Of a stretch of 54,738 bases of DNA, positions 1 through 54,738 are shown piece after piece. Both the position numbers and the translations under genes were made by a program. The stretch covers positions 1-54,738 of the forward strand of contig CAZYIM010000017.1 in the NCBI GenBank assembly GCA_964647565.1. Reading direction: 5' to 3'. Every line of letters starts with the position of its first letter. Position 1 is the stretch's first letter. The notes under the pieces are model-generated. The model was not told the DNA's origin and ran no database searches. It was given only the letters and a program-made list of their open reading frames with translations. The DNA comes from an uncultured Methanosarcinales archaeon (GTDB taxonomy: Archaea; Nanobdellota; Nanobdellia; Woesearchaeales; CAZYIM01).

Positions 1-555
1 GTGATTCATTCTAAGAACTTCAATCATTTAGATAAGATATTGGAACTTGGCGAGCAGGTTGGAACTTCAGATATAACATTTATACCATTAGCAGTTTTAG
101 GTCCTATGCAGGATAGATTAGAGTTGTCTAACGATGAAAAACAGGTGTTGCAGCAGCTCTTGCCAAAATACATACAATTGGCTAAAAAACTGGGAATTGA
201 TACTAATCTTGAATCTCTTCAGGAAGGTACGCCCAATAGTTCTCCTAAAACTGCAGAGAAACTTGCTAGCAAGAGTAAAAAAAAAGAGTCACCTGGTTTT
301 GCCAATACAGCTTGTTTTGAACCATTTCTTCATCTGGTCATAAAAATGAATTATTCAATCAGCCCTTGTTGTATGCTTGATTCTGAGGAGTCTTTAAAGA
401 AAAATAGCCTGAAATCTATTTGGTTTGGTGATTATTTCACTAATTTAAGAACCAAACTTATAGAGGGAAAATTACCTGTAAGATGTAAGAACTGCTTGCA
501 CACTCAAGTAGTCCATAATCAGGATCTGAGGGATGCTTTAAATAAAGAGATTTAA
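1..555 (+). CDS. Radical SAM protein, C-terminal part with Twitch/SPASM-like domain (5' truncated by window edge)
   Basis: CFEPF-x-SPCC ... SLKSIWFGDYF ... CKNC tail matches the complete radical SAM paralogs in the window; the CxxxCxxC motif lies outside the window. Confidence 0.85.
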   Translation: MIHSKNFNHLDKILELGEQVGTSDITFIPLAVLGPMQDRLELSNDEKQVLQQLLPKYIQLAKKLGIDTNLESLQEGTPNSSPKTAEKLASKSKKKESPGFANTACFEPFLHLVIKMNYSISPCCMLDSEESLKKNSLKSIWFGDYFTNLRTKLIEGKLPVRCKNCLHTQVVHNQDLRDALNKEI

Positions 556-689
556 TGAAAATTCTACAAATATTTCTGTTTTTGTCGGTATATTTAAATA
601 GTTTTTTTCGTTCCTTACTAAAAATTCAGGAGGATATTTTTAATATATAACAACATTAGTTAATTTTACAATCCTAACAGGTGGTCAAC

Positions 690-1328
690 GTGAATGCACT
701 AGACAAATTTAACATATTTATTGACAAGACAAAAGATACGCTTGACAGCATCTTTGGCAACAAGCCAGAGGGTGCAGATTATTTCAATCCTCATGAAGAA
801 GTTGAATTCCAAGAAGGCAGAAAAATATCTTATAAGAACTTAGTGAGCTTAGTCGAAGAAAAGCAAGGTAAGCTAGAAATAGATTTAACAGCAATTCTCG
901 TCGGAACCCTAAAAGAAACAGATGGTGGCTACCAGGGATTTGGTTATGGCTGGACAGACCAGATGTACGGCCAAAACGATGGAATAACTCTTTACACATA
1001 TACTCATGTGGTTAAAAAGAAAGCCCATCCTACATATGGATACAAAGGTACAGGTTTTGCATGGGCAGAGATTAAAAAATGTAATTTTGGCGGCAATAAA
1101 TTTAGGTTAAAACAGACCAAAATCCATACCGAGAATACTAGTAACGAGCCAGGATTCCAAGCAATGGGTTATTCTAGTGTTGATGAAATGGAAGGAACCC
1201 TGGGCAAACAACTTAAGGTAACCTTTAAAAGAACGCTTATGGATAAACGTGATGAGCATTCAGCATTATACCAAGGATGTGGAGAAGGCTGGACAGACAA
1301 GGCTAGAGTTACTATAGAACTTGTATGA
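690..1328 (+). CDS. Hypothetical protein with four internal ~38-aa Gly/aromatic-rich repeats
   Basis: Long ORF (track start 681). AGGTGG at 679-684 favours GTG at 690. Motifs YQGFGYGWTD, YKGTGFAWAE, FQAMGYSSVD, YQGCGEGWTD. T-tract follows the stop. Confidence 0.8.
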   Translation: MNALDKFNIFIDKTKDTLDSIFGNKPEGADYFNPHEEVEFQEGRKISYKNLVSLVEEKQGKLEIDLTAILVGTLKETDGGYQGFGYGWTDQMYGQNDGITLYTYTHVVKKKAHPTYGYKGTGFAWAEIKKCNFGGNKFRLKQTKIHTENTSNEPGFQAMGYSSVDEMEGTLGKQLKVTFKRTLMDKRDEHSALYQGCGEGWTDKARVTIELV

Positions 1329-1341
1329 TTTTTTTCTTTTT
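1329..1341 (+). terminator. Oligo-T archaeal-type terminator
   Basis: TTTTTTTCTTTTT directly after the stop of 690..1328, at a convergent gene junction. Confidence 0.45.
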
Positions 1342-2687
1342 AATTTAGATATCCTAGAGATTTAAGCAGCTCAATACTTTTCTTGTTATCTTCCTTTAAT
1401 CGCTGATTTGATTCTATAAACTCATTGAGAAATCTCATCATGTTCTGGCTTATCTCTGGCATCACTCTAAACATATTATTTTGTTCTTTCTTACCCTCTA
1501 CAATATTATACAGCTTTGCTGTGTTATTATCAAACACTAATTTCCAATCTCCCTGCCTGACCAACCAGGAATCCTCCCCAGCAAGGACAAGTGTACGATC
1601 TTCCTGTAATTCCAATAGACTAACACCCTTGAGATTTGAAAAGTCATGGTCAATCTCTAATAGGTCAAGTACTGTTGGGAAAATGTCGATGTTTGAGACA
1701 GGTATTCTTGTTTTTGCATTATTTCCCAGCTTTTTTCCTCCAACGCTGATCATCAAAGGCACCTTAACTACTTCGTCTTTCAATGTAATGCAGTGGTTCC
1801 AAAGGTCTTCTTCACCTAGCAGTTCTCCATGGTCTGAAGTAAGGATAACTAGCGTATTTTTATCTAGGTTTAGCTCTTTAAGCTTAGTCAACACTCTTCC
1901 CATATGATAATCCATGTATTTGATCTCCCCCTCATACAAACCATGCATATATGTAGTCTCTTCTTCGCTAAGTTTGTAACCTACGTATTTCCAAGATTCA
2001 TCTGTGGGTGCTTTAATTTCATTTAAGTATGATCTAATATCTCCTTTGACAAAGGATATATTTTGATTGGTGGTTTTGAGTTCTTTCCTATGTTCTGCAG
2101 GAGGGTTGTATGGATCGTGCGGATCAAAATAGAATAGCCAAAGAAAAAACTTACCTTTTTTTATGATTTTTCTCGAGCCATTCAATGGATTTTTGACTGA
2201 CTTCTTCTGCATTTCTTGTACTCATTGAGTAGATGTCTTTTTGTTTTTCATTTTGGATATCATAGAAGTCAAAACCTATACTATAATATGGATTGGGATT
2301 CTCAGAATCACCAAATAAATGTTGGCTGATAATTGCAGCAGTATTATATCCACTCTGGTTGAGCACTTCTGCAAGCCTTGGTTTATCCTTAACATCTAAT
2401 CTACCGGTTAACATACGTACTACTGCAGGAACAGTGCACGGAGCTGAAGTATAGGCCTGCTCATAGATAGTTTTATCGTTGAAAAATTTATCAATATTGG
2501 GTGTTGTATTCTTAGGATAACCATAGATGCCCATATGGTCCTGCCTGAGTGTATCAACAGTAATTAGAATAACATTACAGTCTGGAGGGCAGTTAACTTC
2601 TTGAACAGCCGCTTTTTGGCATGCTGATAGGAATATAGTGCTAACTACCATGAATATTAGAAACAGGTTTCTTCTTAGGTGTGTCAT
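1340..2687 (-). pseudogene. Sulfatase-like hydrolase/transferase (alkaline phosphatase superfamily) split by a +1 frameshift; predicted lipoprotein
   Basis: ORF 2151..2687 has lipobox LSAC, LITVDTLRQDH and APCTVPAVVRMLTG. ORF 1340..2212 has FFLWLFYFDPHDPY, LTSDHGE and a C-terminal LKSLGY. Removing one base of the A7 run at 2156-2162 joins them (HKK-GKFFLW). Could be a sequencing error. Confidence 0.75.
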
Positions 2688-2724
2688 ATTGGATTTAAAT
2701 CAGCGTTCTCTTTAAGCAGGATGC

Positions 2725-4071
2725 TCATGTGATATAGCCAAGAGCCCTCAATCTTTCTTTCATCTCTTCTTCGTATGGTGAACCCTCGGATTCGGATTTT
2801 CCCTTTTTATTATCATCTAAGTCCTTTAGTTTCTCAACAGGTTCAACTATTTCTTTCAGAAGGTGCAATGGCGGAAGATTTTTCATGTCAGGATCCTTAG
2901 GGATACCTTGTATATGAAGAATTAGTGGTGCAATATCATAAACGCTAAGATTGTTAACTTCACCCAGATTTTTAAACAAGGGGCCTTTTGCCAGAAATAC
3001 TCCGTTTATCTTATGCTGAGCATGTCCTGGTGCTCCATCTTCAAAATGGTGTATAGTCAGTGGATGCTTGAATCCATGATCTGAGACAATAATTATGTTG
3101 GTGCCAGGATCTATTATCTCTTGCATCTTGCCTATGCTTTCATCTGTGTGCTTGTAAAATTCGGGGATTATATTTTCGAATATCTCTTTTTCTTCTTCTG
3201 TTGGAGGATTCCTGAATTTCATATTCTTGTATTCTGGCTGATAATATTTCCAATATTTATGCGAGACTGCATCGACACTGTCATAATACCCTATAAAAAG
3301 ATCTGGTTGGTCGATATTCTTGAGCAGGGATAAAGTGATTTGGATTCTGAGCTTCTCTTTTGAAAATTCAGCTCTCAAGAAAGATATTAATCTTTGATAT
3401 GTTTCTTCTTTTGAATCACTCTTAAAATCTTTATCAACATAATTTAATATATCTTTATCTGTAAATCGTATTATTTCTTGGTATATCTTGTCATAATCAT
3501 AATCTGCCTTATTTTGCTCTTTAAAACCATTTAGAAGCTCCGGAGGATAGGTCAGGTCTGGAACTTTTGCCTTATCCGTCAAGAAATATTCATAATAGCG
3601 TCTGCTTACAATATAACCATTAACTTTTTCAGCCGGCCAGCTTGCATAATACCCCATTACCCCTACAGACTTATTGTACTTAGACAGGATGTTCCATAAT
3701 GCAGGCACCTTTCTATGGTTTGAAGTTAATGTTTGGCCGTCTATTAAGAAATCAGTAATTCCATGCTCTTCGCCTGTTTTTCCAGTCGCAATAGATGTCC
3801 AAATAAGAGGAGTTTTCATAGGCTCAATAGATCTGAGATTGCCATAAGTCCCTTTATCCATTAATTTTTTTATATTCGGAAGTTCATTCTTTTCTATGAG
3901 AGGTTTGATGATATCCCACTCCATGCCGTCGATCCCTATTAAAATCACTTTGTGGTTTTTCTTGGGCGAGATGTTGGTCAGAACCAGAAAAACTAATAAT
4001 ATGAGGCAAATTATTCCGCTTAAAAAGGGTATTATGTTTAGGAATCTGTTTATCAATCTCTTTTTAGTCAT
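2725..4071 (-). CDS. Type I phosphodiesterase/nucleotide pyrophosphatase family protein (alkaline phosphatase superfamily), N-terminal membrane anchor
   Basis: IGIDGMEW, TPLIWTSIATG, DAVSHKYW, VSDHGF motifs; C-terminal ERLRALGY; N-terminal hydrophobic helix. Confidence 0.9.
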   Translation of the reverse strand: MTKKRLINRFLNIIPFLSGIICLILLVFLVLTNISPKKNHKVILIGIDGMEWDIIKPLIEKNELPNIKKLMDKGTYGNLRSIEPMKTPLIWTSIATGKTGEEHGITDFLIDGQTLTSNHRKVPALWNILSKYNKSVGVMGYYASWPAEKVNGYIVSRRYYEYFLTDKAKVPDLTYPPELLNGFKEQNKADYDYDKIYQEIIRFTDKDILNYVDKDFKSDSKEETYQRLISFLRAEFSKEKLRIQITLSLLKNIDQPDLFIGYYDSVDAVSHKYWKYYQPEYKNMKFRNPPTEEEKEIFENIIPEFYKHTDESIGKMQEIIDPGTNIIIVSDHGFKHPLTIHHFEDGAPGHAQHKINGVFLAKGPLFKNLGEVNNLSVYDIAPLILHIQGIPKDPDMKNLPPLHLLKEIVEPVEKLKDLDDNKKGKSESEGSPYEEEMKERLRALGYIT

Positions 4072-6011
4072 TTTAACAGGCTCTTTCCATCTATTAATTC
4101 GCTTTCTTTAAGTCCTAAAGCATCAAAAATTGTGGGTACTATGTCCATTTGGGAAGCAGATTTGGAATTTAGTTCTATATTTGCAAATAGAACTCCCGGA
4201 ACGAATTTAGGATCGACAAGATGGTCTCCAACCCATTTTTTATCATTGTCTGTTATCACCTCTTTTGTAAATCCTCCGATAGCATTTTGCCATGACATCC
4301 TAAAGCCAGGATTAAAACCTATTATTATGTCAGGGGCATCTTTCATACTTTCCCCATTATAAATTTCTTCTCTCTTGTATGCTTTGTTTACTACTTTTTT
4401 TCCTGTTTTAGGGTCTTTTAATTTTTCCAGCTCATCAATAATTTCATCAATGATCGCATCTCTATCTTTCACAATCCCTTTTCCTTCCCTGTCTTGAAGA
4501 TTGACATATATGCTGTTGAATCCTACTGAATAGGCTTTTGTTTTTGACCAGTCCACTTTTTCGAAAAGAGCTCCATCCTGGCCTTTTTTAAGTTCCTCAG
4601 TCAGAGTTATAAATCCATTTTCCACCAGCCATGTGTTGATACTGACGGATCTTTCAAATGATGTGAATCCGTGGTCAGAAATTATTAAGAGAAGGGTGTT
4701 CTCATCAAGCTTTTCAAGAACATTTCCGATGAATTCATCCTTTTCAATAAAGTATTCCTCTATCTCTTCACTGGTTTGGAACCTTTTAGAATTCTTGGTC
4801 AGGACCTTATCTTGCCACATGACATGTTGCAGCCTGTCAGAAGAATCGAAAACAAAAGCAAAGATACCTTTTTTCTTTTTATTGAACTCATTGAACTCAT
4901 CCCAAAACATCTTATTTCTTTCATTCTCAATATCTTTAATCTGTTTTATGAATGCATCCTTATCTAGGAGTTCATCAACATAGCCGTCTGTCTCTTCAGG
5001 CATTCCCAGGGTGTGATAAATGCCGATTGCCTTTGCTAGTTCTTCTGAATATTTGGGCGGATAAGAAATTTTCTTTATTGGATTTTCAGGATCTATCTGT
5101 ATGGCTGTGACATACATCTCAAAGGGATCTATGCTTATCAGATATGTCCTGAATATGCCGTATGCTTTGCTGAATGTTCCAGTCTTGAACTTAACTCTGA
5201 TCCATTCACTCCAGCTATCAAGATCGAGCGAATATTCTTTTTCATTGATGGTTAAAGTGGCTGAGTTCTGATCGTTGGAGATTGAAATCTGTAAAGGTTC
5301 TTTGATATCTACAACATTGCCAGATTTGCTTGTCTTAGGACCGAATATTTCTGTGTGAATGATCCCATCAATTTCTTCAACCTTAACAATCTTATTGCTG
5401 GCCTTTGAGGATTCCTTATCTTCTTCTGAAGTATAATAACTATACCCGCTCAAGAAACCCTTGATATCTGGCACCCCTAGTCCGGACAATAGATTACCTT
5501 CAATCCTTTCAGGAGGGAATGTGACAGGCCATCTGATGACACTTGTAGAAATTCCTTCTTTGGAGCTTATTCTCCAGAAGGGATCTGCTTTTACATATGA
5601 TTGGTAATCCGTACCTGCAATACCGCTTACAGTCTTTGTTAGACTCAATTCAGGCAAGTAGTTCTTAGGGTTCCTTCTTATGAAATCAAAGATGTTGTGC
5701 TTGCCAGGATTAGTACCTGTGGCAATGGAGGTCCATGCAACAGGACTATGCGGTGGATAGCTGGTATTAAGGTTGATAAAAGTGCCATTTTTTACTAGCT
5801 TGTTGAGATTTGGAAGTTTATTTTCCGCTATTAAGGATTTGGCCACTCTCGGATCAAAGCCATCTATACCTATGATTATGACCTTATTAAATCTGGATTT
5901 GGTTTCCATACTCCCCTCTTGAGCTGTAATAAAAATAATTAAAACTAATATTGCAACAACAAAACAAACCACGAATGTTTTTATTAATCTTTTCTTTTTA
6001 TTTTTTCCCAT
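4068..6011 (-). CDS. Type I phosphodiesterase/nucleotide pyrophosphatase family protein, N-terminal membrane anchor
   Basis: IGIDGFDP, SPVAWTSIATGTNPGKH, DRLQH, ISDHGF, GDH motifs; ATGA overlap with next gene. Confidence 0.9.
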   Translation of the reverse strand: MGKNKKKRLIKTFVVCFVVAILVLIIFITAQEGSMETKSRFNKVIIIGIDGFDPRVAKSLIAENKLPNLNKLVKNGTFINLNTSYPPHSPVAWTSIATGTNPGKHNIFDFIRRNPKNYLPELSLTKTVSGIAGTDYQSYVKADPFWRISSKEGISTSVIRWPVTFPPERIEGNLLSGLGVPDIKGFLSGYSYYTSEEDKESSKASNKIVKVEEIDGIIHTEIFGPKTSKSGNVVDIKEPLQISISNDQNSATLTINEKEYSLDLDSWSEWIRVKFKTGTFSKAYGIFRTYLISIDPFEMYVTAIQIDPENPIKKISYPPKYSEELAKAIGIYHTLGMPEETDGYVDELLDKDAFIKQIKDIENERNKMFWDEFNEFNKKKKGIFAFVFDSSDRLQHVMWQDKVLTKNSKRFQTSEEIEEYFIEKDEFIGNVLEKLDENTLLLIISDHGFTSFERSVSINTWLVENGFITLTEELKKGQDGALFEKVDWSKTKAYSVGFNSIYVNLQDREGKGIVKDRDAIIDEIIDELEKLKDPKTGKKVVNKAYKREEIYNGESMKDAPDIIIGFNPGFRMSWQNAIGGFTKEVITDNDKKWVGDHLVDPKFVPGVLFANIELNSKSASQMDIVPTIFDALGLKESELIDGKSLLK

Positions 6012-6208
6012 AATCTCAATACCGCCTTTTTAATTGGCTGAAAGAAATATCTTAAGAAAAATGCGCCTATAGCTGCCAATACTGCTACAATGAATGGCCA
6101 GATTGATCCAACGATCATACCTCCTGTACCCGGATCGATATACGCAAGAACAATTTTCATTGTCATAAGACCAAGCCCGATATGCAGCCAGATTTTTTTA
6201 TTTAGCAT
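5984..6208 (-). CDS. Small membrane protein with AYIDPGTG motif
   Basis: ATG at 6208 overlaps the upstream stop (6202-6204); AYIDPGTGG followed by a hydrophobic helix and a basic tail; 74 aa. Confidence 0.7.
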   Translation of the reverse strand: MLNKKIWLHIGLGLMTMKIVLAYIDPGTGGMIVGSIWPFIVAVLAAIGAFFLRYFFQPIKKAVLRLWEKIKRKD

Positions 6209-7302
6209 TTTTTGTTTAGACAATCTCGTATTTCGTTGTTGATGGAAAAACTCCAGGGATTGCATCTAGAGCAACTCTTTGGGAGTACGTCTTCTATAAT
6301 TGTACCCCTTATCCTATTAAAATATTTACTATTCCATACTTTTTCAAGACTCTTTGCACTTCGTATATCAACACCTTTTGTTGTGAAAAGGAAGCAAGGT
6401 TCTATATGCCCATCAGAGAAAATAGACATGTTAAACCAGGGATAGAAACAGAGAATATTATTGAAGGCCTGATTTTTTTTCTTATCATTATTTATATTCT
6501 TTTTTGTTTCCTTATCCATGATATTTGCCTTTTCAAACAGATTCTGCTGAATAAATTCATCTAGATTTGTTCCAATATTGTTTTTCCTGGCATAAGCCAA
6601 GGCTCTTTTTGCAAGTTTTGAGAATATATTCCAGTTTTCCTTGTTCATCTTGAGGGGCTCCATCTCTTCGGACCAGATGTTAAGGGCATTAACTAATACA
6701 TCATCTACATTGAGTTGCTTTGCAAGTTTGAACATCTCACAAATTTTATCGTAGTTTCTATTACAAATCACCATATGAACCGCTAGAATTGGATTTTTTT
6801 GGCCTTTTTCTGCTTTCAAATCTGAAAAGAGCTTGGCGTTCCTAATTACCTTGTTAAAGCACTTCACTTTCCTAATGTGTTCATGAGTCTTTGCATCAGG
6901 TCCATCAAGACTGATGGTTACCTTGTCCCATTTCAGTTTGACAAGGGTTTCAATGAACTGCTTGTCAAATAAAGTACCATTAGTTATGATTTCTCCGATC
7001 ATCCCCTGTTTTTTTATTTCTGTCATGACAGAGAAAGCGAGATTCCTGTCCAATAATGGCTCGCCTCCGCCGCATATATGCCATTCTTTAACACCCATTT
7101 TCTTGCTCTGTCTGATGATATCCAGCCATTCATCCTTGTTAAGTTCACTGTCTTTTTTAAAGGCATGCTGTTTGGCGAATTCTCTAGTCGGACAGAAAAA
7201 ACACTGTAGATTGCAGAAATTTGTAAGATGTGCTTGAATCTGGGTCGGACCCTGCGGTTGACCTAGGGACCACAACTTAATTCTCTTAACCCGTTCCTCC
7301 AT
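6202..7302 (-). CDS. Radical SAM protein with Twitch/SPASM-like C-terminal domain
   Basis: CNLQCFFC, GGGEP, TNG, SLDG; tail CFYPW-x-EPC...CSRC. Confidence 0.93.
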   Translation of the reverse strand: MEERVKRIKLWSLGQPQGPTQIQAHLTNFCNLQCFFCPTREFAKQHAFKKDSELNKDEWLDIIRQSKKMGVKEWHICGGGEPLLDRNLAFSVMTEIKKQGMIGEIITNGTLFDKQFIETLVKLKWDKVTISLDGPDAKTHEHIRKVKCFNKVIRNAKLFSDLKAEKGQKNPILAVHMVICNRNYDKICEMFKLAKQLNVDDVLVNALNIWSEEMEPLKMNKENWNIFSKLAKRALAYARKNNIGTNLDEFIQQNLFEKANIMDKETKKNINNDKKKNQAFNNILCFYPWFNMSIFSDGHIEPCFLFTTKGVDIRSAKSLEKVWNSKYFNRIRGTIIEDVLPKSCSRCNPWSFSINNEIRDCLNKKC

Positions 7303-7323
7303 GATTTCTGGGAATATCTGCTA

Positions 7324-7336
7324 TATTTAAAAGTTG
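7324..7336 (-). promoter_or_regulatory. Archaeal TATA box for 6202..7302
   Basis: CAACTTTTAAATA on the minus strand; TTTAAATA ends 22 nt before the ATG, consistent with a leaderless transcript. Confidence 0.5.
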
Positions 7337-7393
7337 TTGATAAACTTGCCTAAAAACAATAAATAAATAAGCAAGTAAAGACTCCTAACTACG

Positions 7394-8791
7394 ATGAGAG
7401 TTTCCTTAATATTCGCTCCTTTTGGTCATGTGAAACATTTGGAGAAAACTGAGACTGAGAATGAAGAGTTTGGAGCTTTTCCACCTCTAAATCTAAGTTA
7501 TGTTGCTTCAATAACAAGACAAGCTGGCCATAAGGTGAAGCTCATAGATGCGCATGCTCTGAAACTTTCAAAAAAGCAGGTACTAGCTAAAATCTCAAAG
7601 TTTCGGCCGGATATTCTGGGATTTATGCTTACATCTTATATGTTCCAAAGGACTTTTGATTGGATAAGATATTTTAAGAGAAAGACTGGGTTGCCTGTGG
7701 CTGTAGGTGGTATAAATCTAAGGCTTTTTCCAGAAGAGACCATGAGCCATCCCGAAATAGATTTTGCAATTTTGGGTTCTGCGAGGGCTGCTTTTCCTTC
7801 CTTGCTCCACGCATTAGAGAATGTCGAACCTGTGGATAAAATTAAAGGTATTGCATTCCGAAGAAAAGGAAATGTTGTTTTTAACCCGCCGGATGATTTA
7901 ACAGAAGATCTCGATCTTCTGCCCTTTCCAGCAAGGGATTTGCTTCCTAATCATAAATATTATTCCTATATTTCCCAGAGAAAGAATTTTTCAGTTGTAA
8001 ACACTAGTTTCGGTTGCCCTTATAATTGTGTTTTCTGCGATGAGAGGGCAAGTCCCTACAGGCCGAGAGATCCCAAGAAGGTGGTTGATGAGGTGGAGGT
8101 GTGCGTAAAGAAATACAAAGTAAGGGAGATTGATTTCTTTGACAGAAACTTTACCACCAGTAAAAAGCGAGTTATTAATATCTGTGATGAGCTGATAAAG
8201 AGGAAAGTCAAGATTGAGTGGAGCTGCCGTTCAAGGGTTGATAATGTTGATTCTGAAATGTTGTCAAAGATGAAGCGTGCCGGCTGTAAGATGATCCTTT
8301 ATGGCATTGAGTCTGGTGATCCCAAAATCCTGAAAAATATGAAAAAACAGATCAGTCTGGACAGAGTAAGACAGACTGTTAAACTGACCCAGAAGCATGG
8401 AATTAGGGTTTTTGGTTTCTTTATGATAGGTGCGCCTGGAGAAACTAAAGAAACTGCTATGAGAACCATCAATTTTGCCAAAAGCCTAGACTTAGATTTC
8501 GTCCAGTTTACTAGAACCTCTGCAAAGCCTTTGACTGAACTGCATAAGATGATTACAGAAAAGACAGGTAGAGACTTTTGGAGGGATTTTGTGCGTGGGA
8601 AAACCATCGAGCAGAAGTTACCTATGCCTTGGACTGATCTTTCCCAAAAAGAGATTCATAAACTTATAAGATCTGCCTACCTTTCGTTCTATCTCAGACC
8701 CAAGATTATCATCAGAGCATTTTTTAATCTCAAGTCATTTGACGAGTTATGGAGATATACTCGTTCTACTCTCAAACTAGTTGTTAGATGA
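7394..8791 (+). CDS. Cobalamin-binding radical SAM protein (class B methyltransferase-like)
   Basis: FPPLNLSYVA, VGG, PARDL, CPYNCVFC, YGIESG, FFMIGAPGET. Confidence 0.93.
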   Translation: MRVSLIFAPFGHVKHLEKTETENEEFGAFPPLNLSYVASITRQAGHKVKLIDAHALKLSKKQVLAKISKFRPDILGFMLTSYMFQRTFDWIRYFKRKTGLPVAVGGINLRLFPEETMSHPEIDFAILGSARAAFPSLLHALENVEPVDKIKGIAFRRKGNVVFNPPDDLTEDLDLLPFPARDLLPNHKYYSYISQRKNFSVVNTSFGCPYNCVFCDERASPYRPRDPKKVVDEVEVCVKKYKVREIDFFDRNFTTSKKRVINICDELIKRKVKIEWSCRSRVDNVDSEMLSKMKRAGCKMILYGIESGDPKILKNMKKQISLDRVRQTVKLTQKHGIRVFGFFMIGAPGETKETAMRTINFAKSLDLDFVQFTRTSAKPLTELHKMITEKTGRDFWRDFVRGKTIEQKLPMPWTDLSQKEIHKLIRSAYLSFYLRPKIIIRAFFNLKSFDELWRYTRSTLKLVVR

Positions 8792-45717: not shown

Positions 45718-45718
45718 G

Positions 45719-46746: not shown

Positions 46747-47676
46747 TTAATATCTTTGAAGGTTCTTTAAATTTGCAAATGGGTGCTTGAATAATCTATT
46801 GTATTCCAGATAACATAAGGTTGAACAACAGCATTTTCCGCCTGTTGTTTTTTTATCTTGTGACTGTTTGAATCTGCAGGGGCTTATTTTCCCATTAGGA
46901 TAAAGAGTGCAGAAATGTTTACCTGCAATACAGTTAAATTCTTTTATGCCTTGGGCATATATTTTCAGGACTTTATTGCTTATCATCAGAAGAGCTGGAT
47001 TTTTTTTCTTGAATCTCTTCAACATAAGGATCGCATGTTTAAATTCATTGGTTTTTGGGACCAGTTCATCTACAGTATTATATTGATCCTTGAAAATTGG
47101 CAGAAAAGCAATTGGTGTATTTGTTCTCACTGCTAAACTAAGCATCTCCTTTAATCCAAATAAATCTTGTTCAAGGAGAAAATTAGATAGTAACGTATTA
47201 ATATAAACATTCAGTTTATTCTTTTTCATCAATTGGAGATTTTTAATAACATTATCATATGTGTTCTTGCCTCTGATTTTTTCATGGATCTGTTTAGGAC
47301 CGTCAATCGACAAACCTATTAAGTCAATATCTTTCAGCCATGCAACATTTTTCTGGATCAGAAGGCCGTTGGTGCTCATTGTCATATGTAATCCAAGACT
47401 TTTTGCACAAGCAACCACTTCTTTAATATCTGGATGCAATAATGGTTCCCCCCCACCAAAATACCATGAAAGGCATCCTTTGTCTGAGAATTTTTTCATA
47501 AGTTGTTTTATTTCCTCTTTTCTAAGCTCTTTTCCCTTTTGTTTATATAGGCCACAGGATATACATTTCAAATTACATCTATAAGTAATCAAATGCTCTA
47601 CTTTTATCATTGGTTTTTTGTTAAGCAGATAGAGAAATCCTGTCTTTATCAGCTTAAGAAAGCTTGGACGGCTCAT
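46747..47676 (-). CDS. Radical SAM protein, short Cys-rich C-terminus
   Basis: CNLKCISC, GGGEP, TNG, SIDG; CIAGKHFC-x-SPC...CCCSTLC. Confidence 0.92.
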   Translation of the reverse strand: MSRPSFLKLIKTGFLYLLNKKPMIKVEHLITYRCNLKCISCGLYKQKGKELRKEEIKQLMKKFSDKGCLSWYFGGGEPLLHPDIKEVVACAKSLGLHMTMSTNGLLIQKNVAWLKDIDLIGLSIDGPKQIHEKIRGKNTYDNVIKNLQLMKKNKLNVYINTLLSNFLLEQDLFGLKEMLSLAVRTNTPIAFLPIFKDQYNTVDELVPKTNEFKHAILMLKRFKKKNPALLMISNKVLKIYAQGIKEFNCIAGKHFCTLYPNGKISPCRFKQSQDKKTTGGKCCCSTLCYLEYNRLFKHPFANLKNLQRY

Positions 47677-48656
47677 TTTACATTAAAAAGGGTTCTGATC
47701 ATTGATCTTAGATTCAGATCAAATATGAAATTCAGCTCTGTCAATGAATCACTGACACATCTGGTGCACTTTACCTCAGGTAAGCTAAGGAAGGCTGACT
47801 TAAAATTATTTTCCAACTTTACCATGCCTGACTTAGTTTCTTCCATACAACCACAATGGAACATTGTTCTATCACAATTTAATCTACAGAAGAGTTTGCC
47901 TGCAAAACATTTTATCTTTTTGTTGTTTATGTAGTCTGATCTGAAATAATCCAGGTTCTTTTTTGAATTTGAGATGTATTTCCTGTATTTCTTATTTTTT
48001 AGAAGCTGGCCGAAAAATTGTGAAAATTCTTCTTTAGATGGGATATTGTGTGTTATATTTTCTTCCCTACCAACAACATTAATAAGAGGTGAAAAATCAA
48101 TAGGGGCATTGTATTTCTTTGCAGTTTTAAGAAGAAATTCTATCTGATTTAAGTTCATCTTTGATACTGTGGTGTTGAATCCCATGTTTATCTTATTTTT
48201 TTTACAGAACTCTGCAGCTTCAATAGTTTTCTTAAATGCGCCTTTACCGCGTAATGTATCTTGAATTTCCTTAACTCCATCCAGACTAAGTTTTATTTTT
48301 CCAATCCCTTTAAGACTATCTTTTTTTTGTATTAAAAAGGTTCCATTAGTCTTTACAACCACATAGATATTCTTCTTGATGATATATTGCAGGATCTGTT
48401 CAAAGTCTTCTCTTGCCCAGGGTTCTCCTCCATTAATTGAGATGACTGCAGTTCCTAATCTGTTAAGTTCATCAATGATTTTTAATATTGTGGCCTTATT
48501 CATCTCTTTTTCCATGAATTTATATGACTTACAATAAGGACATTTTAAGTTGCACCTATCTGTTATCTTTATATCCACATAAAGAGGTGTCTTAATGCCA
48601 AATAGATGATAAGCAGTCAGTGCTTTTATTATTTTAATTCTGGTGGTCAGTCTCAT
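47673..48656 (-). CDS. Radical SAM protein, short Cys-rich C-terminus
   Basis: CNLKCPYC, GGEP, TNG, SLDG; CFAGKLFC...HCGC...CTRC. Confidence 0.92.
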   Translation of the reverse strand: MRLTTRIKIIKALTAYHLFGIKTPLYVDIKITDRCNLKCPYCKSYKFMEKEMNKATILKIIDELNRLGTAVISINGGEPWAREDFEQILQYIIKKNIYVVVKTNGTFLIQKKDSLKGIGKIKLSLDGVKEIQDTLRGKGAFKKTIEAAEFCKKNKINMGFNTTVSKMNLNQIEFLLKTAKKYNAPIDFSPLINVVGREENITHNIPSKEEFSQFFGQLLKNKKYRKYISNSKKNLDYFRSDYINNKKIKCFAGKLFCRLNCDRTMFHCGCMEETKSGMVKLENNFKSAFLSLPEVKCTRCVSDSLTELNFIFDLNLRSMIRTLFNVK

Positions 48657-48667: not shown

Positions 48668-50095
48668 TTATTTCTTGAAATATTTTCGCGTATTTAAAGC
48701 TAGTGTTAGTCCATCCTTAAGGCCAAACTCCTCGTATTTAAGGGAAAAAAGAAAATAACTAAGCTTGAAAATTTCGTGATAAATCCTTCCAAAAGGGAGT
48801 CTTATCAGCATCTTAACCAATGGGATGATGATTGGCATACTTACACAAAGGCTGAAAAATTTATGGAGATTCATTATTTCTTTTTTGTTCTTAAGTTTTA
48901 CCCAGTTTGATATGAAAAAACCTCTTTCAAACGCATTGATGTCAAAATGGGATTCGATAAGATTATTTTCAATTACATACTTAGCGATCTCTGTTTTTGG
49001 ATATGGCTGGAGTATATGTGCGTGTGCAAAGTCTGTATTTATCCGTATATTGAACTTAATAGTATTAAAGACATCTTCCAGCGTCTCATTTGGGCTTCCT
49101 ATGAGATTGTAGGTCTTGAGCTTGATCTTTTGTTGTTTTATTGCTTTGGCCGCTGTAACAATTTCCTGGTTTGATAGCTGTTTTTTTAGGATTTGGTTGC
49201 GTATATGTTCGTTAGCTGACTCGATTCCTATCTTAGCAGTAAAACATCCCGCCATTTTCAATGCTTTTGCTATTTCACTATTCATCTTGTCAGCCCTCAG
49301 GGCACATGAAAAAGGAATCTTTATCTCTTTGGAATATATTTTGCAGAATCTGATTATCCAATCTTTATCATGGTTCAAGGCATCGTCTTCAAATATTATC
49401 CTTTTCATGTAGGGATCTTGTTTTCTTAGTTGCTTGATCTCATTAATAACATTCTCAACAGAGCGTTTCCGTACATATTTACCTCTTCCAGAATACATCT
49501 TTTTTAGACCCTTATTAAAACAGAATGCGCAATTATAGGGGCATCCCCTGCCAGTTACAATAACCTTAAGTCTTTGTTTTCTAAAAAAGTCATATTTGTT
49601 ATATAGCTGTCTGTCTGGGAATGGCAGCCGGTCGAGATCGTCTATCAAGGATCTTAAGGCATTCTTGAAAACCTTCTCTTTTTTTCCAATCCTTTTTTTG
49701 ATCCACAGGTTTTGAATATTTGTAATGTCTTTTCTTTTTTGAAGAGTATCTGAAAGATCAAGCAATGCATAATCAGATTCCCCTCTTGAGATTATGTCAA
49801 TTCCTTTTTCATTTAGGATTTCTGGAAAGAAGGTTGGATGTGGCCCGCCAATGAGGGTTATGACAGGAATCTTTTTCTTAATTTTTCTTGCTGTCTTAAT
49901 AACCCAATCCTGTCCGCCTGTTGTGCAGGAGAATGCTATGATGTCTGGATTGATACTGCAGGTCTTTAAAATTAAATCTTTTTCGAGACACTCTACGAGA
50001 ATTTTACATTCATGGCCCTTTTCTTTTAGAATTGCTGACAGATACATAAAGCCCATCTTGACAAACATGTCCTGCTGGATGAATAAGATTTTCAT
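48668..50095 (-). CDS. Cobalamin-binding radical SAM protein
   Basis: MGFMYLSA, IGGPHPT, RGCPYNCAFC, GIES, LIGSPNET. Confidence 0.93.
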   Translation of the reverse strand: MKILFIQQDMFVKMGFMYLSAILKEKGHECKILVECLEKDLILKTCSINPDIIAFSCTTGGQDWVIKTARKIKKKIPVITLIGGPHPTFFPEILNEKGIDIISRGESDYALLDLSDTLQKRKDITNIQNLWIKKRIGKKEKVFKNALRSLIDDLDRLPFPDRQLYNKYDFFRKQRLKVIVTGRGCPYNCAFCFNKGLKKMYSGRGKYVRKRSVENVINEIKQLRKQDPYMKRIIFEDDALNHDKDWIIRFCKIYSKEIKIPFSCALRADKMNSEIAKALKMAGCFTAKIGIESANEHIRNQILKKQLSNQEIVTAAKAIKQQKIKLKTYNLIGSPNETLEDVFNTIKFNIRINTDFAHAHILQPYPKTEIAKYVIENNLIESHFDINAFERGFFISNWVKLKNKKEIMNLHKFFSLCVSMPIIIPLVKMLIRLPFGRIYHEIFKLSYFLFSLKYEEFGLKDGLTLALNTRKYFKK

Positions 50096-50103: not shown

Positions 50104-51078
50104 TTAAATTACTTTTTCATCTAAGAGAAAATTATAAAGCAATTGAGCAAATAACCTGTGTCCTTCTACATTCGGATGTCCATCAACTCCCGGTTCAGGG
50201 AAGTTATGAATAGCAAGATCTTCACATCTATTACTAATGAGTTCATTTAGGTCTTGTGAAAAATCAGAATAGACGAAATCTTCTTTGAGGACAGTTACTT
50301 GATTATAAAATATGGGGGTTCTGCATTTATCACCGTGTAGATCTGGCAACAAGAAAACATAAAACTGGATCTCTTTTTGAACAGCTGAATTATACATTTC
50401 AAAAAGCATATCTTCACTTTTATCCTTGTTTTCTATGATATAATCTATATCTGCATCTCCTCTTTTTATTTTTTTATTAAAGATTTGTAAGTTGATATAT
50501 TTCCCAATTTTAAATCTTGTTAAGAATTCATTAAATGGGATGTTGAGTAGATCAGGGATTTCTGCATTGTAATATGTGATGATATAATTGTCCTTTGTTT
50601 TCCTTATTTTGTATTGATCAAAGTCATTAGTCATTAATCCAAAAATGATGATATCAGGATCATATTGGATAACTGTCTTGTATAGTTTATTTACTTGCTG
50701 GAGATTATATCCATTGATGCCCGCGTTTATAACCCTGAACTTATTGCCTTTATTTTTTGTATTAAGTAATCCTTCTAGGAAATGGGCATAGGTTTCATTT
50801 CTCTTAACTCCTAGTCCATAAGTGAACGAATCTCCAATAACCACTATATTGATTTCTTCATTTGATATTTTATCCATATTTTGTTGAATTTTTTTTTGGG
50901 AATGTACATATATGGGGATTCTTTCATCAAATATGATGTCATTCCTATCAATTATTGATTTGTCAGAACTATTTGGAGCGGGTGCTATAATCTCGAATAA
51001 AAATAATGAAAATAAAATAATGAGTATAGGCATACTGATTTTTAACCAAAATAATTTTTTTTTCGTTTTTTTCTTCAT
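50104..51078 (-). CDS. SGNH/GDSL hydrolase family protein, membrane anchored
   Basis: N-terminal TM; VIGDSFTYG, NAGINGYN, TND, DGHPN; paralog of 10248..11297. Confidence 0.88.
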   Translation of the reverse strand: MKKKTKKKLFWLKISMPILIILFSLFLFEIIAPAPNSSDKSIIDRNDIIFDERIPIYVHSQKKIQQNMDKISNEEINIVVIGDSFTYGLGVKRNETYAHFLEGLLNTKNKGNKFRVINAGINGYNLQQVNKLYKTVIQYDPDIIIFGLMTNDFDQYKIRKTKDNYIITYYNAEIPDLLNIPFNEFLTRFKIGKYINLQIFNKKIKRGDADIDYIIENKDKSEDMLFEMYNSAVQKEIQFYVFLLPDLHGDKCRTPIFYNQVTVLKEDFVYSDFSQDLNELISNRCEDLAIHNFPEPGVDGHPNVEGHRLFAQLLYNFLLDEKVI

Positions 51079-51102: not shown

Positions 51103-52491
51103 TTAGAATCTAAATGTGTTTAATTTTTTCCATATAGGTTTCTTCTTTTTTGGAGGTTTTTTCCCGCTCTTAAGATAGTAGAGTTGTTCTTTCAATTCAA
51201 GGTTCTCCCGGAAGAGATTGATTAAAGTTGTGTGGACTTTCTCATACTGGGCATATTCTTTCAGGCTTTTTCTTACTAGGCACATGTCTCCTATTACATT
51301 AGGCCTGCACATATGACAGTAATCGGGCAAATTTTTCTCTAGGAACATGGCTCTGGTCTTTTCGAGATTAGGACCAAACCATATATCCTTAAGGCTTTTG
51401 TCCTTAATATTATCTTGACTGTCTTTGCACTCTCCACAGTGTACAGCAACTCCTTCTGCAGTGATCATGAGATAGAACCAAGGATAATAACAGGGTATGT
51501 CTGAGATATCTTCCAGGGATTTTTCTTTTAAGGCAGGTTCCTTGACATTGAAGACCTTGAATTTCTTGGTCTGTATAGTCTTTTGCCGCTTGACATTTTT
51601 CTTGATCACTTCCTTGATATCACTTGTCTTTTCCACGAGTTCTTTGTTGAACTCCTTTTTTTCATCTTCCCCTTCCATACAGCTGATAAATGTGGCGATG
51701 TTGAGTTTTCTTGCTAAGCTCTCAGTCTTTCTTATGATACCTGGCAACTGATGGAGCTCTTTTGAAGTAAGTTTGATATTTTGTCCAAGTTCGCTATGTA
51801 TTATCATGGGCTCGATAAAGATAGCGTCGGCACCTAATTGGCTTGCCATTTTTATCATATCTGGTAAGGTCTTATAGTTCAATGAATTCAAAACCATATT
51901 GATCGTGATTGCAGGTCTATCATCGCCATATTTATCCCGGAATTTCCTGAGCTGACTAACCATTCTAGTGGCTTTATCAAAAGTGCCAGGTATTCTTCTT
52001 ATTTTGTCATGAATATCTGCTGTAGGGGCATCAATGCTGACGCCAATTGAATCCCAGCCAATAAGTACTAATGTTTTCAGATCATTGTCTGTCCAAAGGG
52101 TTCCATTGGTTGTAAGTTCGCCGAATATGTTCTGCTGTTTTATCGTCTTTAACAGTCTCATGGTTGATTTAGGTGTACACATAGGTTCGCCAATACCCGC
52201 AATATTCCATGCTTTGACTTTCATCTTGCCAGACTCCCTTGCTATCTCGAGCCATCTCTTGGCAGATACTTCAACCAATTTAGAATGCTCATTGATGTCG
52301 TGTTTTGCCTGCCTTCTGATACAATGGATACAGTTAAGATTACATCTCCTATGAAGCTCTGCATCGATTCTTATGGGTGGGAGTCTTTCACCATTTAGCC
52401 ATCGTTGCATCCTTAGAGAGTAGTCTCTAATCCAGAGCTCTTTTTTAAAGAGCATTACCTTTGATATAGGGTTGGGTTTTTCAAGCTCCAT
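51103..52491 (-). CDS. Radical SAM protein with Twitch/SPASM-like domain and coiled-coil/basic tail
   Basis: CNLNCIHC, GEP, TNG; CYYPW-x-VHC...CHMC; C-terminal extension. Confidence 0.92.
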   Translation of the reverse strand: MELEKPNPISKVMLFKKELWIRDYSLRMQRWLNGERLPPIRIDAELHRRCNLNCIHCIRRQAKHDINEHSKLVEVSAKRWLEIARESGKMKVKAWNIAGIGEPMCTPKSTMRLLKTIKQQNIFGELTTNGTLWTDNDLKTLVLIGWDSIGVSIDAPTADIHDKIRRIPGTFDKATRMVSQLRKFRDKYGDDRPAITINMVLNSLNYKTLPDMIKMASQLGADAIFIEPMIIHSELGQNIKLTSKELHQLPGIIRKTESLARKLNIATFISCMEGEDEKKEFNKELVEKTSDIKEVIKKNVKRQKTIQTKKFKVFNVKEPALKEKSLEDISDIPCYYPWFYLMITAEGVAVHCGECKDSQDNIKDKSLKDIWFGPNLEKTRAMFLEKNLPDYCHMCRPNVIGDMCLVRKSLKEYAQYEKVHTTLINLFRENLELKEQLYYLKSGKKPPKKKKPIWKKLNTFRF

Positions 52492-53659
52492 TTTCTTTCT
52501 GTCTTTTTAAAAAATCTAAATAGATCTTCATATCCTGCTTTAGTTCAGCTGTCATATCCAGTAGGCCGCATGCTGAGCATTTTTCAGTTGGCTTGTTCTC
52601 AATTATCATTTTCCTAATCTTTTTAAAAAAGGATCCATACCAGATCTGCTCAAAACCCTGCCGAATGTTATTCTCTGGTTTTCCATCACCAGCAGCACAG
52701 CAATAGTTGACATTACCCAGCGGATCAATGAACATCGAATAAAATGGTTCGTAACATAAAGGACTTAGGAACTTTTCCTGGTTTTTTTCAATCGTTGATT
52801 CTTCTTCCTCGTTCTCCTCTTTTTCATTTCTTTGTTCTGTTTCTTCTATCATGCTGACATTGAGATACATATCTGATTTTGAAGCTATTTTTTGGGCTTC
52901 TTTAATTTGTTCGAGCATTATTTTCTCCTGATTTTTATTCAGTTTGAGATGCTGCATTCTGTCACGGGTTTCTTCATACTCCCTCATAGGATGTAGAGCC
53001 AGTTCACTAACTCCATTTTTTATTGCAAACTTTACAATATCAATTATTTGATCAAAGTTCTTATTGCTTAAGACAGTGTTCATCTGTACTAAGGGCTTAT
53101 CTGTCTTGTTCTTCTTTTTCAAATCCTGCAGCAGTTTGAGGTGTTTTGAAGCATCTTGGAATGCTCCTTTGGTTCCCCGCACATAATTATGTGTTTTGGC
53201 TTTACAAGAATCAATACTGACAAGAATACGGTCAAGTCTGCATTTTACAAGCATCATTAACGTATTCTTATCTGGTAAAGTAAGATTGGTGATGATTTCA
53301 CAGATGTTAGTCTTATCATGATTTTTTATCATCCTAATCATGTTTAAGGTAAGCTCTTTTCGGACAAAGGGTTCTCCTCCTCCGAGTATATAGAATTCCT
53401 TTGCGCCCATATCTAATGCATCTCTGACTAGTAAACACCAGTCTATATCTTTAAGCTCTTCCTCTTCCTTGAATCTTCCAACCTCTCTAGCATATGAATT
53501 TGGACAGCAGTAACATTTTAAATTGCACCTATTAGTGGGCACCATAACTATCTTGAATGGCGGTTGAGGGTTATTATCCAGCCAATTATAGATTCTTAAT
53601 ATCTTTTCTGAATGATTTTCATTGTTGTAGCGGAATAAACTTTTTGGAGGTCTAATCAT
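52481..53659 (-). CDS. Radical SAM protein with Twitch/SPASM-like domain
   Basis: CNLKCYCC, GGGEP; CYEPF-x-NYCC...CSAC; ATG 53659 (track start 53665 is TTG). Confidence 0.93.
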   Translation of the reverse strand: MIRPPKSLFRYNNENHSEKILRIYNWLDNNPQPPFKIVMVPTNRCNLKCYCCPNSYAREVGRFKEEEELKDIDWCLLVRDALDMGAKEFYILGGGEPFVRKELTLNMIRMIKNHDKTNICEIITNLTLPDKNTLMMLVKCRLDRILVSIDSCKAKTHNYVRGTKGAFQDASKHLKLLQDLKKKNKTDKPLVQMNTVLSNKNFDQIIDIVKFAIKNGVSELALHPMREYEETRDRMQHLKLNKNQEKIMLEQIKEAQKIASKSDMYLNVSMIEETEQRNEKEENEEEESTIEKNQEKFLSPLCYEPFYSMFIDPLGNVNYCCAAGDGKPENNIRQGFEQIWYGSFFKKIRKMIIENKPTEKCSACGLLDMTAELKQDMKIYLDFLKRQKENGA

Positions 53660-54728
53660 TTTCAAGAGCCTCCCTAAGTTCTCTATTTTCGTCTATCATC
53701 AAAGTACAGCATCTCTGGCAGGCCTCTGGCAGGTCCCAATTCTTCATTCTTTTTCTTAAATCCTTCATTTTTTTACTGTTCCACATGTATTCAAGGGTCT
53801 TATCTTTAACATTGCCGAGCTCTAATGATGGGTGGTTGGCTGCTGCTGCACAAGGAGTGACGTTACCCTCACTACTGACACAGAGTCCAATCCACGGATA
53901 ATAACATGCAATCTTACCTTTGTTTTTAGGTTCTTGCTTTTCAGCTAATATGATATCCTTGGCTTGGTCAGATCTTGAATGAGAATAATCTTTCTTTATG
54001 CTATCAATATTTGTATGAACTTCTAGTTTTTTTGCGAGCTCTTCAGCATTATCAAGTACAATCATTACTTTCTTATTATTGGTGATCTGAAGAACTTTAG
54101 ATTCCTTTGTGAAGGGGATTAAGGGTAATATATTGAGCTTACCAATCCCTTTTTGTTTACAGATTTCCACTATTTCTGGGAGTTCTCTGAAATTAATTTT
54201 GCACATTACAAAATTGAGCTCAACATCTGGCAACCTTTTGCCCTTAGCGTGCTTAATATTGTTAATTTCTGTCATCGCATTGAAGGTCTTATCAAATGAA
54301 CCTTTAATACCTCTGAGCTTGTCATGAGTTTGTGCTTTTGCTCCATCTAGGCTAAAAGCCAGATTGTTCCATTCCATCTCTACAAGTTCATTTAATTCAG
54401 CAGTGTTAAGTAGAGTTCCATTAGTGACCATACTGGTGCCCATCCGATGTTTCTTTGATTTCTTGAATATTTTCATAGCATCTCTACGCATGAACGGTTC
54501 TCCTCCGAGCACTCCAAAATTTATGGTGTGCATCTTAGCTGCAGAGTCAAGCAAATCAAGCATTTTCTCGGTAGGAACCTCTTTTTTTGCACTCTCTTTA
54601 GATTTTTGTGGAAACTGGCAGAATACACATTTGAGGTTGCATCTGTTAGTCAGAAATACATCTAGCTTAAAAGGACCTTTGTTGTTATTTAGGTTTTCTC
54701 TGACTCTATCTATGAAATCTTTTCTCAT
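53652..54728 (-). CDS. Radical SAM protein with Twitch/SPASM-like domain
   Basis: CNLKCVFC, GGEP, TNG, SLDG; CYYPW-x-TPC...CQRCC. Confidence 0.93.
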   Translation of the reverse strand: MRKDFIDRVRENLNNNKGPFKLDVFLTNRCNLKCVFCQFPQKSKESAKKEVPTEKMLDLLDSAAKMHTINFGVLGGEPFMRRDAMKIFKKSKKHRMGTSMVTNGTLLNTAELNELVEMEWNNLAFSLDGAKAQTHDKLRGIKGSFDKTFNAMTEINNIKHAKGKRLPDVELNFVMCKINFRELPEIVEICKQKGIGKLNILPLIPFTKESKVLQITNNKKVMIVLDNAEELAKKLEVHTNIDSIKKDYSHSRSDQAKDIILAEKQEPKNKGKIACYYPWIGLCVSSEGNVTPCAAAANHPSLELGNVKDKTLEYMWNSKKMKDLRKRMKNWDLPEACQRCCTLMIDENRELREALEND

Positions 54729-54738
54729 CTTCTAAGAG

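Follow-up and report, generated by a model that had tools for sequence, protein, structure and literature searches.

The DNA analysed here (the window) is a stretch of 54,738 nucleotides that makes up the whole of contig C17 in G000, the genome of an uncultured archaeon (2.68 Mb in 86 contigs, 86.9% complete). It encodes 22 intact radical S-adenosylmethionine (SAM) enzymes and half of another, set among glycosyltransferase (GT) and membrane-protein genes. A preliminary description had assigned all 23 enzymes to a single assembly line of the ArnC/ArnD/ArnE-F/ArnT kind. We find that the locus is instead two interleaved modules, an array of twitch-type radical SAM enzymes tied to the exporter genes Wzm/Wzt and to GT2 and GT4 genes (module I), and a set of cobalamin (B12)-type radical SAM enzymes with GT-C transferases (module II). 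From gene content, orthology, co-occurrence and folds we infer that the two on balance probably remodel lipid-linked sugars by radical chemistry for an exported surface glycan. Our confidence that the substrate is a carbohydrate is moderate, and that in any particular reaction type, carrier or acceptor is weak.

Separation of two modules in other genomes

A single line for all 23 enzymes is not supported: 10 twitch genes and the half gene form a separate array, which elsewhere occurs with few or no B12 enzymes; the array-bearing genomes G402, G403 and G404 have 1, 0 and 3 B12-binding matches, respectively. We also compared radical-SAM-rich stretches, picked for radical SAM density, in 13 relatives without the array, and in 6 of them B12-type genes lie with GT-C and GT2 genes, often together with a flippase, AsnB-like, carbamoyltransferase or deacetylase gene. 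The association of B12-type radical SAM genes with GT-C and GT2 genes is therefore conserved elsewhere, and the surface glycan context proposed earlier is supported. Among the loci compared, genes for a divergent B12-fold subfamily (B12b) and for aldo-keto reductase (AKR)-ferredoxins were seen only alongside the twitch array. The relative G064, from a different family, likewise interleaves both modules, and its 195 cluster proteins include reciprocal best hits for 25 of the 42 window genes.

Gene content of the window

We retained 42 non-nested open reading frames (ORFs) out of 73 of at least 90 residues. Radical SAM genes account for 23 of the 42, the half gene at 1-555 included, close to the half of all genes first estimated. 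All 22 intact genes carry CxxxCxxC and match Pfam Radical_SAM (PF04055) above its cut-off, and the truncated gene has a SPASM match, so the original census stands. The intact genes divide into 10 W-type twitch, 2 shorter twitch-like, 7 canonical B12-type and 3 B12b genes. Radical_SAM matches number 110 across G000; 2.2 would be expected per 54.7 kb, and the maximum in any window over 2000 random placements was 14. None of the 22 reaches an NCBIfam curated cut-off (HpnJ, BchE, PqqE, AhbC/D, NirJ and other named families included), which keeps them outside the characterised housekeeping and cofactor families, as had been expected.

The accessory genes named at the outset are all present. Pfam identifies three PMT_2 GT-C transferases, a GT2, an LPG_synthase_TM flippase-like protein, a NodB-type deacetylase, two SGNH and two AsnB-like proteins. 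There are four AlkP-superfamily ORFs, two of them halves of one frameshifted gene, and three AKR-ferredoxin genes (two through Pfam, the third through alignment). Overlap between ORFs in 17 of 31 same-strand neighbour pairs agrees with the overlapping operons described. We found no tRNA and no Rfam family in the window, and none of the public RNA runs listed contains the window stretch. Promoter-like sites at 26.5-28.6 kb, sought with a bacterial consensus, were no better than in shuffled sequence. The genes are as follows.

1-555 (+) C-terminal half of a W-type twitch radical SAM gene, 5'-truncated (N-terminal half ends C12); SPASM match
681-1328 (+) 215-residue orphan without Pfam, NCBIfam, Atlas or locus match
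1340-2687 (-) AlkP-superfamily 'sulfatase-like', frameshift-split at an A7 run (~2156-2162), Thr at nucleophile position
2725-4071 (-) membrane-anchored AlkP/phosphodiesterase-family enzyme, Thr nucleophile
4068-6011 (-) membrane-anchored AlkP/phosphodiesterase-family enzyme, Ser nucleophile
6202-7302 (-) W-type twitch radical SAM, ortholog group 1 (13 genomes)
7394-8791 (+) B12-type radical SAM, module II
8805-10205 (-) B12-type radical SAM, module II
10248-11297 (-) membrane-anchored SGNH hydrolase/acyltransferase
11470-13059 (+) GT-C (PMT_2) transferase
13071-14567 (-) B12-type radical SAM
14735-16636 (+) AsnB-like ATP-dependent amide ligase, SGGxD motif present, N-terminal Cys missing
16653-18053 (+) B12-type radical SAM; best model HpnJ, 223 bits (cut-off 578)
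18050-19009 (-) flippase-like protein, TIGR00374 above cut-off, LPG_synthase_TM
19011-20144 (-) W-type twitch radical SAM outside the ortholog groups; reciprocal best hit in G064
20131-21888 (-) GT-C (PMT_2/PMT) transferase
21927-23567 (-) B12b radical SAM of divergent B12 fold, travels with module I
23557-24675 (-) W-type twitch radical SAM outside the ortholog groups
24668-25819 (-) W-type twitch radical SAM outside the ortholog groups
25791-27395 (-) B12-type radical SAM, 66% identity to its G064 ortholog
27663-28439 (+) membrane-anchored protein, weak relation to a CBM11-like family of other arrays
28476-29609 (+) W-type twitch radical SAM, group 18
29606-32407 (+) aldo-keto reductase with ferredoxin-type Cys motifs and TPR repeats
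32404-33462 (+) degenerate aldo-keto reductase with ferredoxin-type Cys motifs
33467-34525 (+) aldo-keto reductase with ferredoxin-type Cys motifs
34539-36053 (-) B12b radical SAM
36050-37180 (-) W-type twitch radical SAM outside the ortholog groups
37177-38727 (-) B12b radical SAM, predicted fold like TsrM/OxsB/AprD4
38829-39914 (-) W-type twitch radical SAM, group 19; structure modelled
39930-41681 (-) GT-C (PMT_2) transferase
41653-43023 (-) B12-type radical SAM, adjoins AsnB-like and deacetylase genes (in G064, deacetylase then AsnB-like)
43059-44954 (-) AsnB-like amide ligase without N-terminal Cys
45019-45717 (+) NodB-type polysaccharide deacetylase
45695-46447 (+) GT2, polyprenyl-phosphate-sugar synthase-like (weak AglJ/PpgS scores)
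46747-47676 (-) radical SAM, short twitch-like type
47673-48656 (-) radical SAM, short twitch-like type
48668-50095 (-) B12-type radical SAM
50104-51078 (-) membrane-anchored SGNH enzyme
51103-52491 (-) W-type twitch radical SAM, group 16, C-terminal extension
52481-53665 (-) W-type twitch radical SAM, group 17
53652-54728 (-) W-type twitch radical SAM, group 15; start overlaps the stop of the C13-terminal arylsulfotransferase

The window within a larger locus

Both window ends are contig ends and, as predicted, the gene cluster continues past each, into contigs C13 and C12. The right end shares 14 nt with the end of C13 (chance expectation 1e-4), and across this overlap the C13 arylsulfotransferase ORF closes over the start of 53652-54728; the ortholog group order 13-15-17 continues over the join just as it does in G064 and G406, while G404 has the order with one intervening gene. 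On the other side, the left end of C12 encodes the N-terminal 185 residues of a W gene. Compared with a paralog, this fragment and window 1-555 abut at one and the same residue, and they have a common best hit (L111:11515). Four DNA runs mapped to window 1-8000 gave no sequence past the left end. Judged from these contig ends, C17 very probably joins C13 and C12 in one 144.5-kb locus, and we hold both joins with strong confidence. An 8-nt end overlap between C42 and C35 was taken as chance.

The joined locus (144,532 bp) has 55 radical SAM core genes, half of the genome's 110, of which 28 are W, 9 other twitch-like, 14 B12 and 4 B12b. C12 and C13 contribute Wzm, Wzt, Wzt_C, Wzx, GT2s, GT4s, GH113 and six further GT-C-like genes, together with arylsulfotransferases, methyltransferases and IspG. 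Wzm and Wzt lie on C12 and are attached to the window through the proposed join; the same layout occurs in other genomes.

Several local features stand out in this locus. IspG (GcpE, Pfam 477 bits) lies inside the C13 W array (L007:9241-10287), has no counterpart in any other fetched locus and is not accompanied by DXR, which was not found in G000. Two W genes on C13 (L007:12441-13615 and 13659-14842) are each split into a radical SAM core ORF and a twitch-domain ORF with a 4-nt overlap; comparable pairs of a radical SAM core and a 71-91-residue ORF occur in G267 (loci L113-L116). A cassette on C12 (L002:13379-17244), present also in G064 (L112), comprises a PqqD-like ORF scoring below cut-offs, a peptidase S24-like gene, an NTP_transf_5 nucleotidyltransferase and a radical SAM gene. 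Contigs from runs X1 and X2 read identically across the A7 run that splits the AlkP-superfamily gene 1340-2687, so the gene may be phase-variable or a pseudogene, or the run a site of slippage. Homopolymer runs are ~2x denser in the locus, but we do not claim phase variation because the locus is also more AT-rich (GC content 34.8% versus 38.6%).

Module I is a conserved array of distinct twitch enzymes

W-type proteins have an N-terminal RLxxWxxG...P consensus and only ~20 residues ahead of the barrel. G000 has 25 full-length W paralogs, 10 in the window, and all 10 complete window genes match PF13186. We scanned species genomes with the W alignment and took the best 80 of 113 matches, which gave 49 loci. 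The W loci among the matches listed are mostly from Aenigmatarchaeota and unclassified archaea, with few bacteria, and many carry runs of 10-15 W genes. In the layout that recurs among them, Wzm-Wzt-X-GT2 is followed by three twitch genes, W genes, AKR-ferredoxin and GT4-GT4-GH113-like-GT-C. The set is patchy: 13 of the 371 genomes in G401's phylum have it (11 of the 13 with at least 5 matches), as do 7 of 401 genomes of G000's order (four candidates per genome scored). One W array is in a record labelled Syntrophomonadaceae, which may reflect transfer or misbinning.

For phylogeny we used 216 W proteins from 17 genomes, excluding three duplicate loci and non-array bacterial and single loci. 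FastTree gave 19 ortholog groups at support of at least 0.9, which recur in order and of which 16 are strictly single-copy. Groups 1-15 each span 8-13 of the 17 genomes, and 29 of the 216 sequences, 7 of them from G000, have no assigned group. G000 holds 18 groups intact and the 19th as the gene split across contigs. These data bear on the idea that the paralogs are a recent, lineage-specific pile of duplicates with no shared pathway. Such duplication does occur in G267, where 4 of 4 best hits are own paralogs; in G000, all 25 full W paralogs are nearer to another genome's protein than to their own paralogs, and an own paralog is the best hit for just 7 of 26 B12-types. With the reciprocal best hits in G064 added, this explanation retains next to no probability and for the W set is already contradicted.

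CxxxCxxC is kept in 215 of the 216 proteins, with SAM-binding motifs, and four C-terminal Cys are conserved in at least 98%, from which the C-terminal twitch domain would hold one auxiliary Fe-S cluster. Nineteen alignment columns are fixed within groups and different between them; they fall mostly on barrel or twitch strands in an alternating pattern, many are polar, and the residues would face the active site. W domains are also fused to GT4 (P0135) and AlkP (P0107), and there are tandem fusions of 2-4 radical SAM domains, most of which are <42% identical to any ortholog group. One relative has a run of multi-domain radical SAMs of 893, 953 and 1481 residues (L119, G163:C1:454001-474000). 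Single-copy groups, set-wise retention and multi-domain fusions would suit subunits of a fixed hetero-oligomer, either a scaffold or an Fe-S electron chain, in place of sequential catalysts. The near-universal catalytic motifs and the separate conserved barrel residues of each group argue against such a complex, which we regard as highly improbable.

The model of 38829-39914 (predicted local distance difference test score 90) has the nucleoside-sugar enzyme BlsE as its top fold match (Z 24.6, root-mean-square deviation 3.4, 300 aligned), with Tes (Z 17.7), BtrN (Z 15.9) and SpeY (Z 9.6) further down. The match to Tes raises the alternative that these enzymes remodel membrane lipids, either host-derived isoprenoid cores or sugar head groups, in the manner of Tes, Gms or calditol synthase. 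IspG inside the C13 array would fit, as would the action of calditol synthase and HpnJ on lipid-linked sugars (in the available part of PMC13459092). However, the variable barrel residues are mostly polar, IspG is unmatched in the other fetched loci, GGGPS and DXR were not found in G000, and what is conserved nearby is a polysaccharide ABC exporter with GTs. Lipid remodelling is on this evidence improbable.

Module II combines B12-type enzymes with GT-C transferases

The ten enzymes counted earlier as cobalamin-binding are all B12-type in size and architecture, but PF02310 is matched (E<=1e-5) in only 6; the other four are 41653-43023 and the divergent B12b subfamily (21927, 34539 and 37177). 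The model of 37177 matches the fold of TsrM/OxsB, and also that of AprD4. Five of the 7 canonical B12-types score highest with the NCBIfam model HpnJ, at 116-223 bits where the cut-off is 578, and 41653-43023 aligns to the HpnJ/BchE models over most of its length. The GG and GE motifs for the cobalamin tail, as defined in the part of PMC9204698 available, are both present in 5 of the 10; 41653 has G and GE, and 37177 has GG with a displaced GE.

Among the matches listed, a PMT_2 match lies within 10 kb of 15 of 72 B12-binding matches, in 8 of 21 genomes, where 2.8 were expected; this compared the best 150 each of 224 and 254 matches in radical-SAM-sized frames, minus G000 and the W-bearing genomes. 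One GT-C subfamily is expanded in both G000 and G064. Contig C35 (L009-L010) carries another module II cluster, open on both sides, in which ~7 GT-C-like genes accompany five B12-type radical SAMs, a flippase-like gene and two carbamoyltransferases.

Accessory enzymes, cofactors and source organism

G000 has MetK and an IscU-type scaffold, the latter found in all six array-bearing genomes G401-G406. SufBD, DXR, GGGPS and class I/II ribonucleotide reductase were not found in G000 at 87% completeness. Catalytic tetrad positions vary among the AKR-ferredoxins and some homologs have lost the second Cys motif, which makes the idea that they donate electrons a weak one. The N-terminal catalytic Cys is absent from both window AsnB-like proteins and present in the homologs encoded in L108 and L115. 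In the 5 of 8 AlkP proteins whose motif was readable, the nucleophile is Thr or Ser, without the Arg of the CxPxR formylglycine motif.

The genome carries archaeal markers (S3Ae, NMD3, TFS, DUF460 and AglB, the last on C16) and belongs to an order of at least 136 families with genomes mostly of 0.6-2.3 Mb. We take the organism to be a member of the DPANN archaea, probably of the Woesearchaeales. Forty relatives have 3-54 Radical_SAM matches (median 14), against 95 in G064 and 60 in G267. Marine DNA runs from two studies contain the window stretch, mostly at ≥99% identity, and may include the source sample. Elsewhere in G000, glycan loci surround AglB on C16 (~4-21 kb and 35-51 kb) with sulfate-activation-like (CysD/CysN), sugar-nucleotide and heptose-enzyme-like genes, assigned from N-terminal sequence only. 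C29 (L012:2775-12476) has five radical SAMs with nucleotidyltransferase, thymidylate-kinase-like, cytidylyltransferase-like, NUDIX and histidine phosphatase genes and looks like a separate nucleotide-modifying cluster. C40 (L013-L014) has radical SAM genes with DUF362 and small ORFs, which by eye may resemble a His-Xaa-Ser-type system.

A model for radical remodelling of lipid-linked sugars

In module I, a polyprenyl carrier on the cytoplasmic side would receive a sugar chain built by GT2 and GT4 enzymes. Some 19 W-type and three other twitch enzymes, each with one auxiliary Fe-S cluster, would then abstract hydrogen at particular sugar carbons, which they would oxidise, epimerise, dehydrate or decarboxylate; the AKR-ferredoxins may reduce intermediates or relay electrons, and Wzm/Wzt would export the product. 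In module II, the small GT2 would put single sugars onto polyprenyl phosphate, where the deacetylase, AsnB-like ligases and B12-type radical SAMs might tailor them by C-methylation or HpnJ-like ring contraction. Once moved outside by the TIGR00374 flippase, these sugars would be joined by GT-C enzymes either to protein or to the exported glycan. Outside the cell, SGNH, AlkP and arylsulfotransferase enzymes could add acyl, phospho and sulfo decoration. The C-methylation, oxidation or epimerisation of sugars or lipid head groups put forward in the preliminary description may still apply.

A number of observations weigh against this model. No BtuF or FecCD cobalamin importer was found in G000 (87% complete), and three of the 10 B12-types (7394, 21927 and 34539) have no GE at the usual place. 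The GT-C profile found no match among solved structures in the PDB. The co-location of PMT_2 and B12-binding matches had no control family, kin are not independent and glycan genes cluster anyway; genome-wide, the two counts correlate weakly (n=40; rho 0.32, p 0.044; per Mb 0.19, p 0.23). The peptide maturase SkfB is level with BlsE as a fold match for the W model (Z 24.1), and Foldseek and sequence searches put peptide maturases first, with SkfB at the top and PqqE and SuiB in the lists. Lastly, the conserved glycosyltransferases number ~3 against 22 or more twitch enzymes, a ratio that simple tailoring of a small repeat unit would not readily explain.

The fold and sequence lists would suit peptide or protein maturases, whether acting on peptides that ribosomes make and that are modified after translation (RiPPs) or maturing sulfatases, and the C12 cassette does place one PqqD-like ORF beside a peptidase S24-like and a nucleotidyltransferase gene. 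That cassette, though, is matched only in G064 among the fetched loci and stands apart from the array. The ~20 residues before the W barrel leave no RiPP recognition element domain, no conserved precursor-like ORF of 60 residues or more was found beside W arrays, and the AlkP nucleophile, where readable, is Thr or Ser and not Cys. We therefore consider maturation distinctly improbable.

The small number of glycosyltransferases keeps alive a different alternative for module I, namely a radical assembly line in which each W-type enzyme adds one unit by carbon-carbon coupling at a fixed step. The donors would be SAM-derived adenosyl groups or nucleoside diphosphate sugars, and the product a defined-length non-glycosidic polyol or C-linked polymer, primed and capped by the few GTs and exported by Wzm/Wzt. 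Near all-or-none retention of the W set, one copy per group in recurring order and the tandem fusions agree with such a line, and HpnH offers a precedent by forming a C-C bond from adenosyl to lipid (in the available part of PMC13459092). Against it, the groups diverge strongly in their active-site columns, a pattern more in keeping with different reactions than with a single step done repeatedly; the unassigned neighbours show no recurring nucleosidase or dehydratase family, and most fusion domains are not close to any group. We think it unlikely. Aenigmatarchaeota arrays also contain a 91-94-residue ORF (L075:13028-13312 and relatives) that matches the C-terminal part of the post-Wzt protein and looks, from its sequence, like a coiled coil with an amphipathic helix, a feature of chain-length rulers. 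A bolder and rather doubtful version takes the ~22 twitch enzymes as a mobile, set-wise cassette forming a non-templated radical assembly line for a carbon-linked or wholly rearranged surface polymer exported by Wzm/Wzt, onto which the B12/GT-C module of G000 grafts radical-modified side sugars. If true, a radical-built coat on small host-associated archaea would resist host and viral glycosidases.

At least 19 of the enzymes are conserved individually in two archaeal phyla and bear distinct active-site signatures. Under the remodelling of lipid-linked sugars that we prefer, they offer a set of uncharacterised enzymes for C-H functionalisation whose substrate class can be tested. The reading predicts a surface polymer of novel chemistry on DPANN cells, which bears on host and virus encounters. 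The two-module split shows which genes belong together, and Aenigmatarchaeota genomes of 0.6-0.7 Mb carry a minimal module I. To these the window adds the largest array form seen, the contig joins and the separation of the modules. No account of such an array came up in full-text searches of open PubMed Central and bioRxiv, a scope outside which most subscription journals and supplements lie, or in the available part of bioRxiv 10.64898/2026.06.07.730766.

Comparison with known systems

Radical SAM enzymes ordinarily number one or few per pathway, and those of the twitch type one or two. The Arn pathway is defined by ArnA/ArnB sugar synthesis and the SMR-type ArnE/F flippase, and we know of no lipid A in archaea. 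Module II shares with Arn its GT2, deacetylase, flippase-like and GT-C genes, so that this part of the proposed Arn logic stands. It differs in its TIGR00374/LPG_synthase_TM flippase and its many B12-type radical SAMs; no ArnA/ArnB equivalent is found among the 42 window ORFs, and the window GT-Cs match PMT_2 only, neither NCBIfam ArnT nor the solved ArnT structure.

BtrN is a precedent for twitch radical SAM chemistry, and we took BlsE, SpeY and AprD4 as precedents by their PDB titles. W-type enzymes share with BlsE, BtrN, SpeY and SkfB a partial barrel and a C-terminal domain with four conserved Cys, but differ in their 14-21% identity, extra N- and C-terminal helices and at least 19 paralogs per locus.

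Module II can also be compared with the hopanoid side-chain branch HpnI/HpnK/HpnJ and the calditol synthase Cds. In the available part of PMC13459092, HpnJ acts on a lipid-linked sugar after a GlcNAc (N-acetylglucosamine) transferase and a deacetylase, and Cds likewise acts on a lipid-linked sugar. Module II would share with them a radical SAM step on a lipid-linked sugar that follows a GT and a deacetylase, and HpnJ is the best model for most of its canonical B12-types. The scores here are sub-cut-off, however, with ten window B12-types against one and no squalene-hopene cyclase among the scanned cluster genes. The same source describes anammox ladderane clusters as a multi-gene envelope pathway with proposed B12-radical SAM steps; the present locus differs in having no FabF, FabZ or ACP among the scanned genes and TIGR04072 below its cut-off.

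Wzm/Wzt-dependent pathways for O-antigen, galactan and S-layer glycan share with the joined locus Wzm, Wzt, Wzt_C, GT4s and a GT2 with a coiled-coil-like segment. Here Wzt_C has a gene of its own, the Wzm and Wzt scores fall far short of the cut-offs of the galactan and teichoic-acid models, and the locus also carries 28 W-type and 9 other twitch radical SAM genes, an attachment for which our searches gave no published parallel. In conclusion, the array is real and conserved, and we regard it as a variant of lipid-carrier glycan pathways, with a chance that it is of a new kind.

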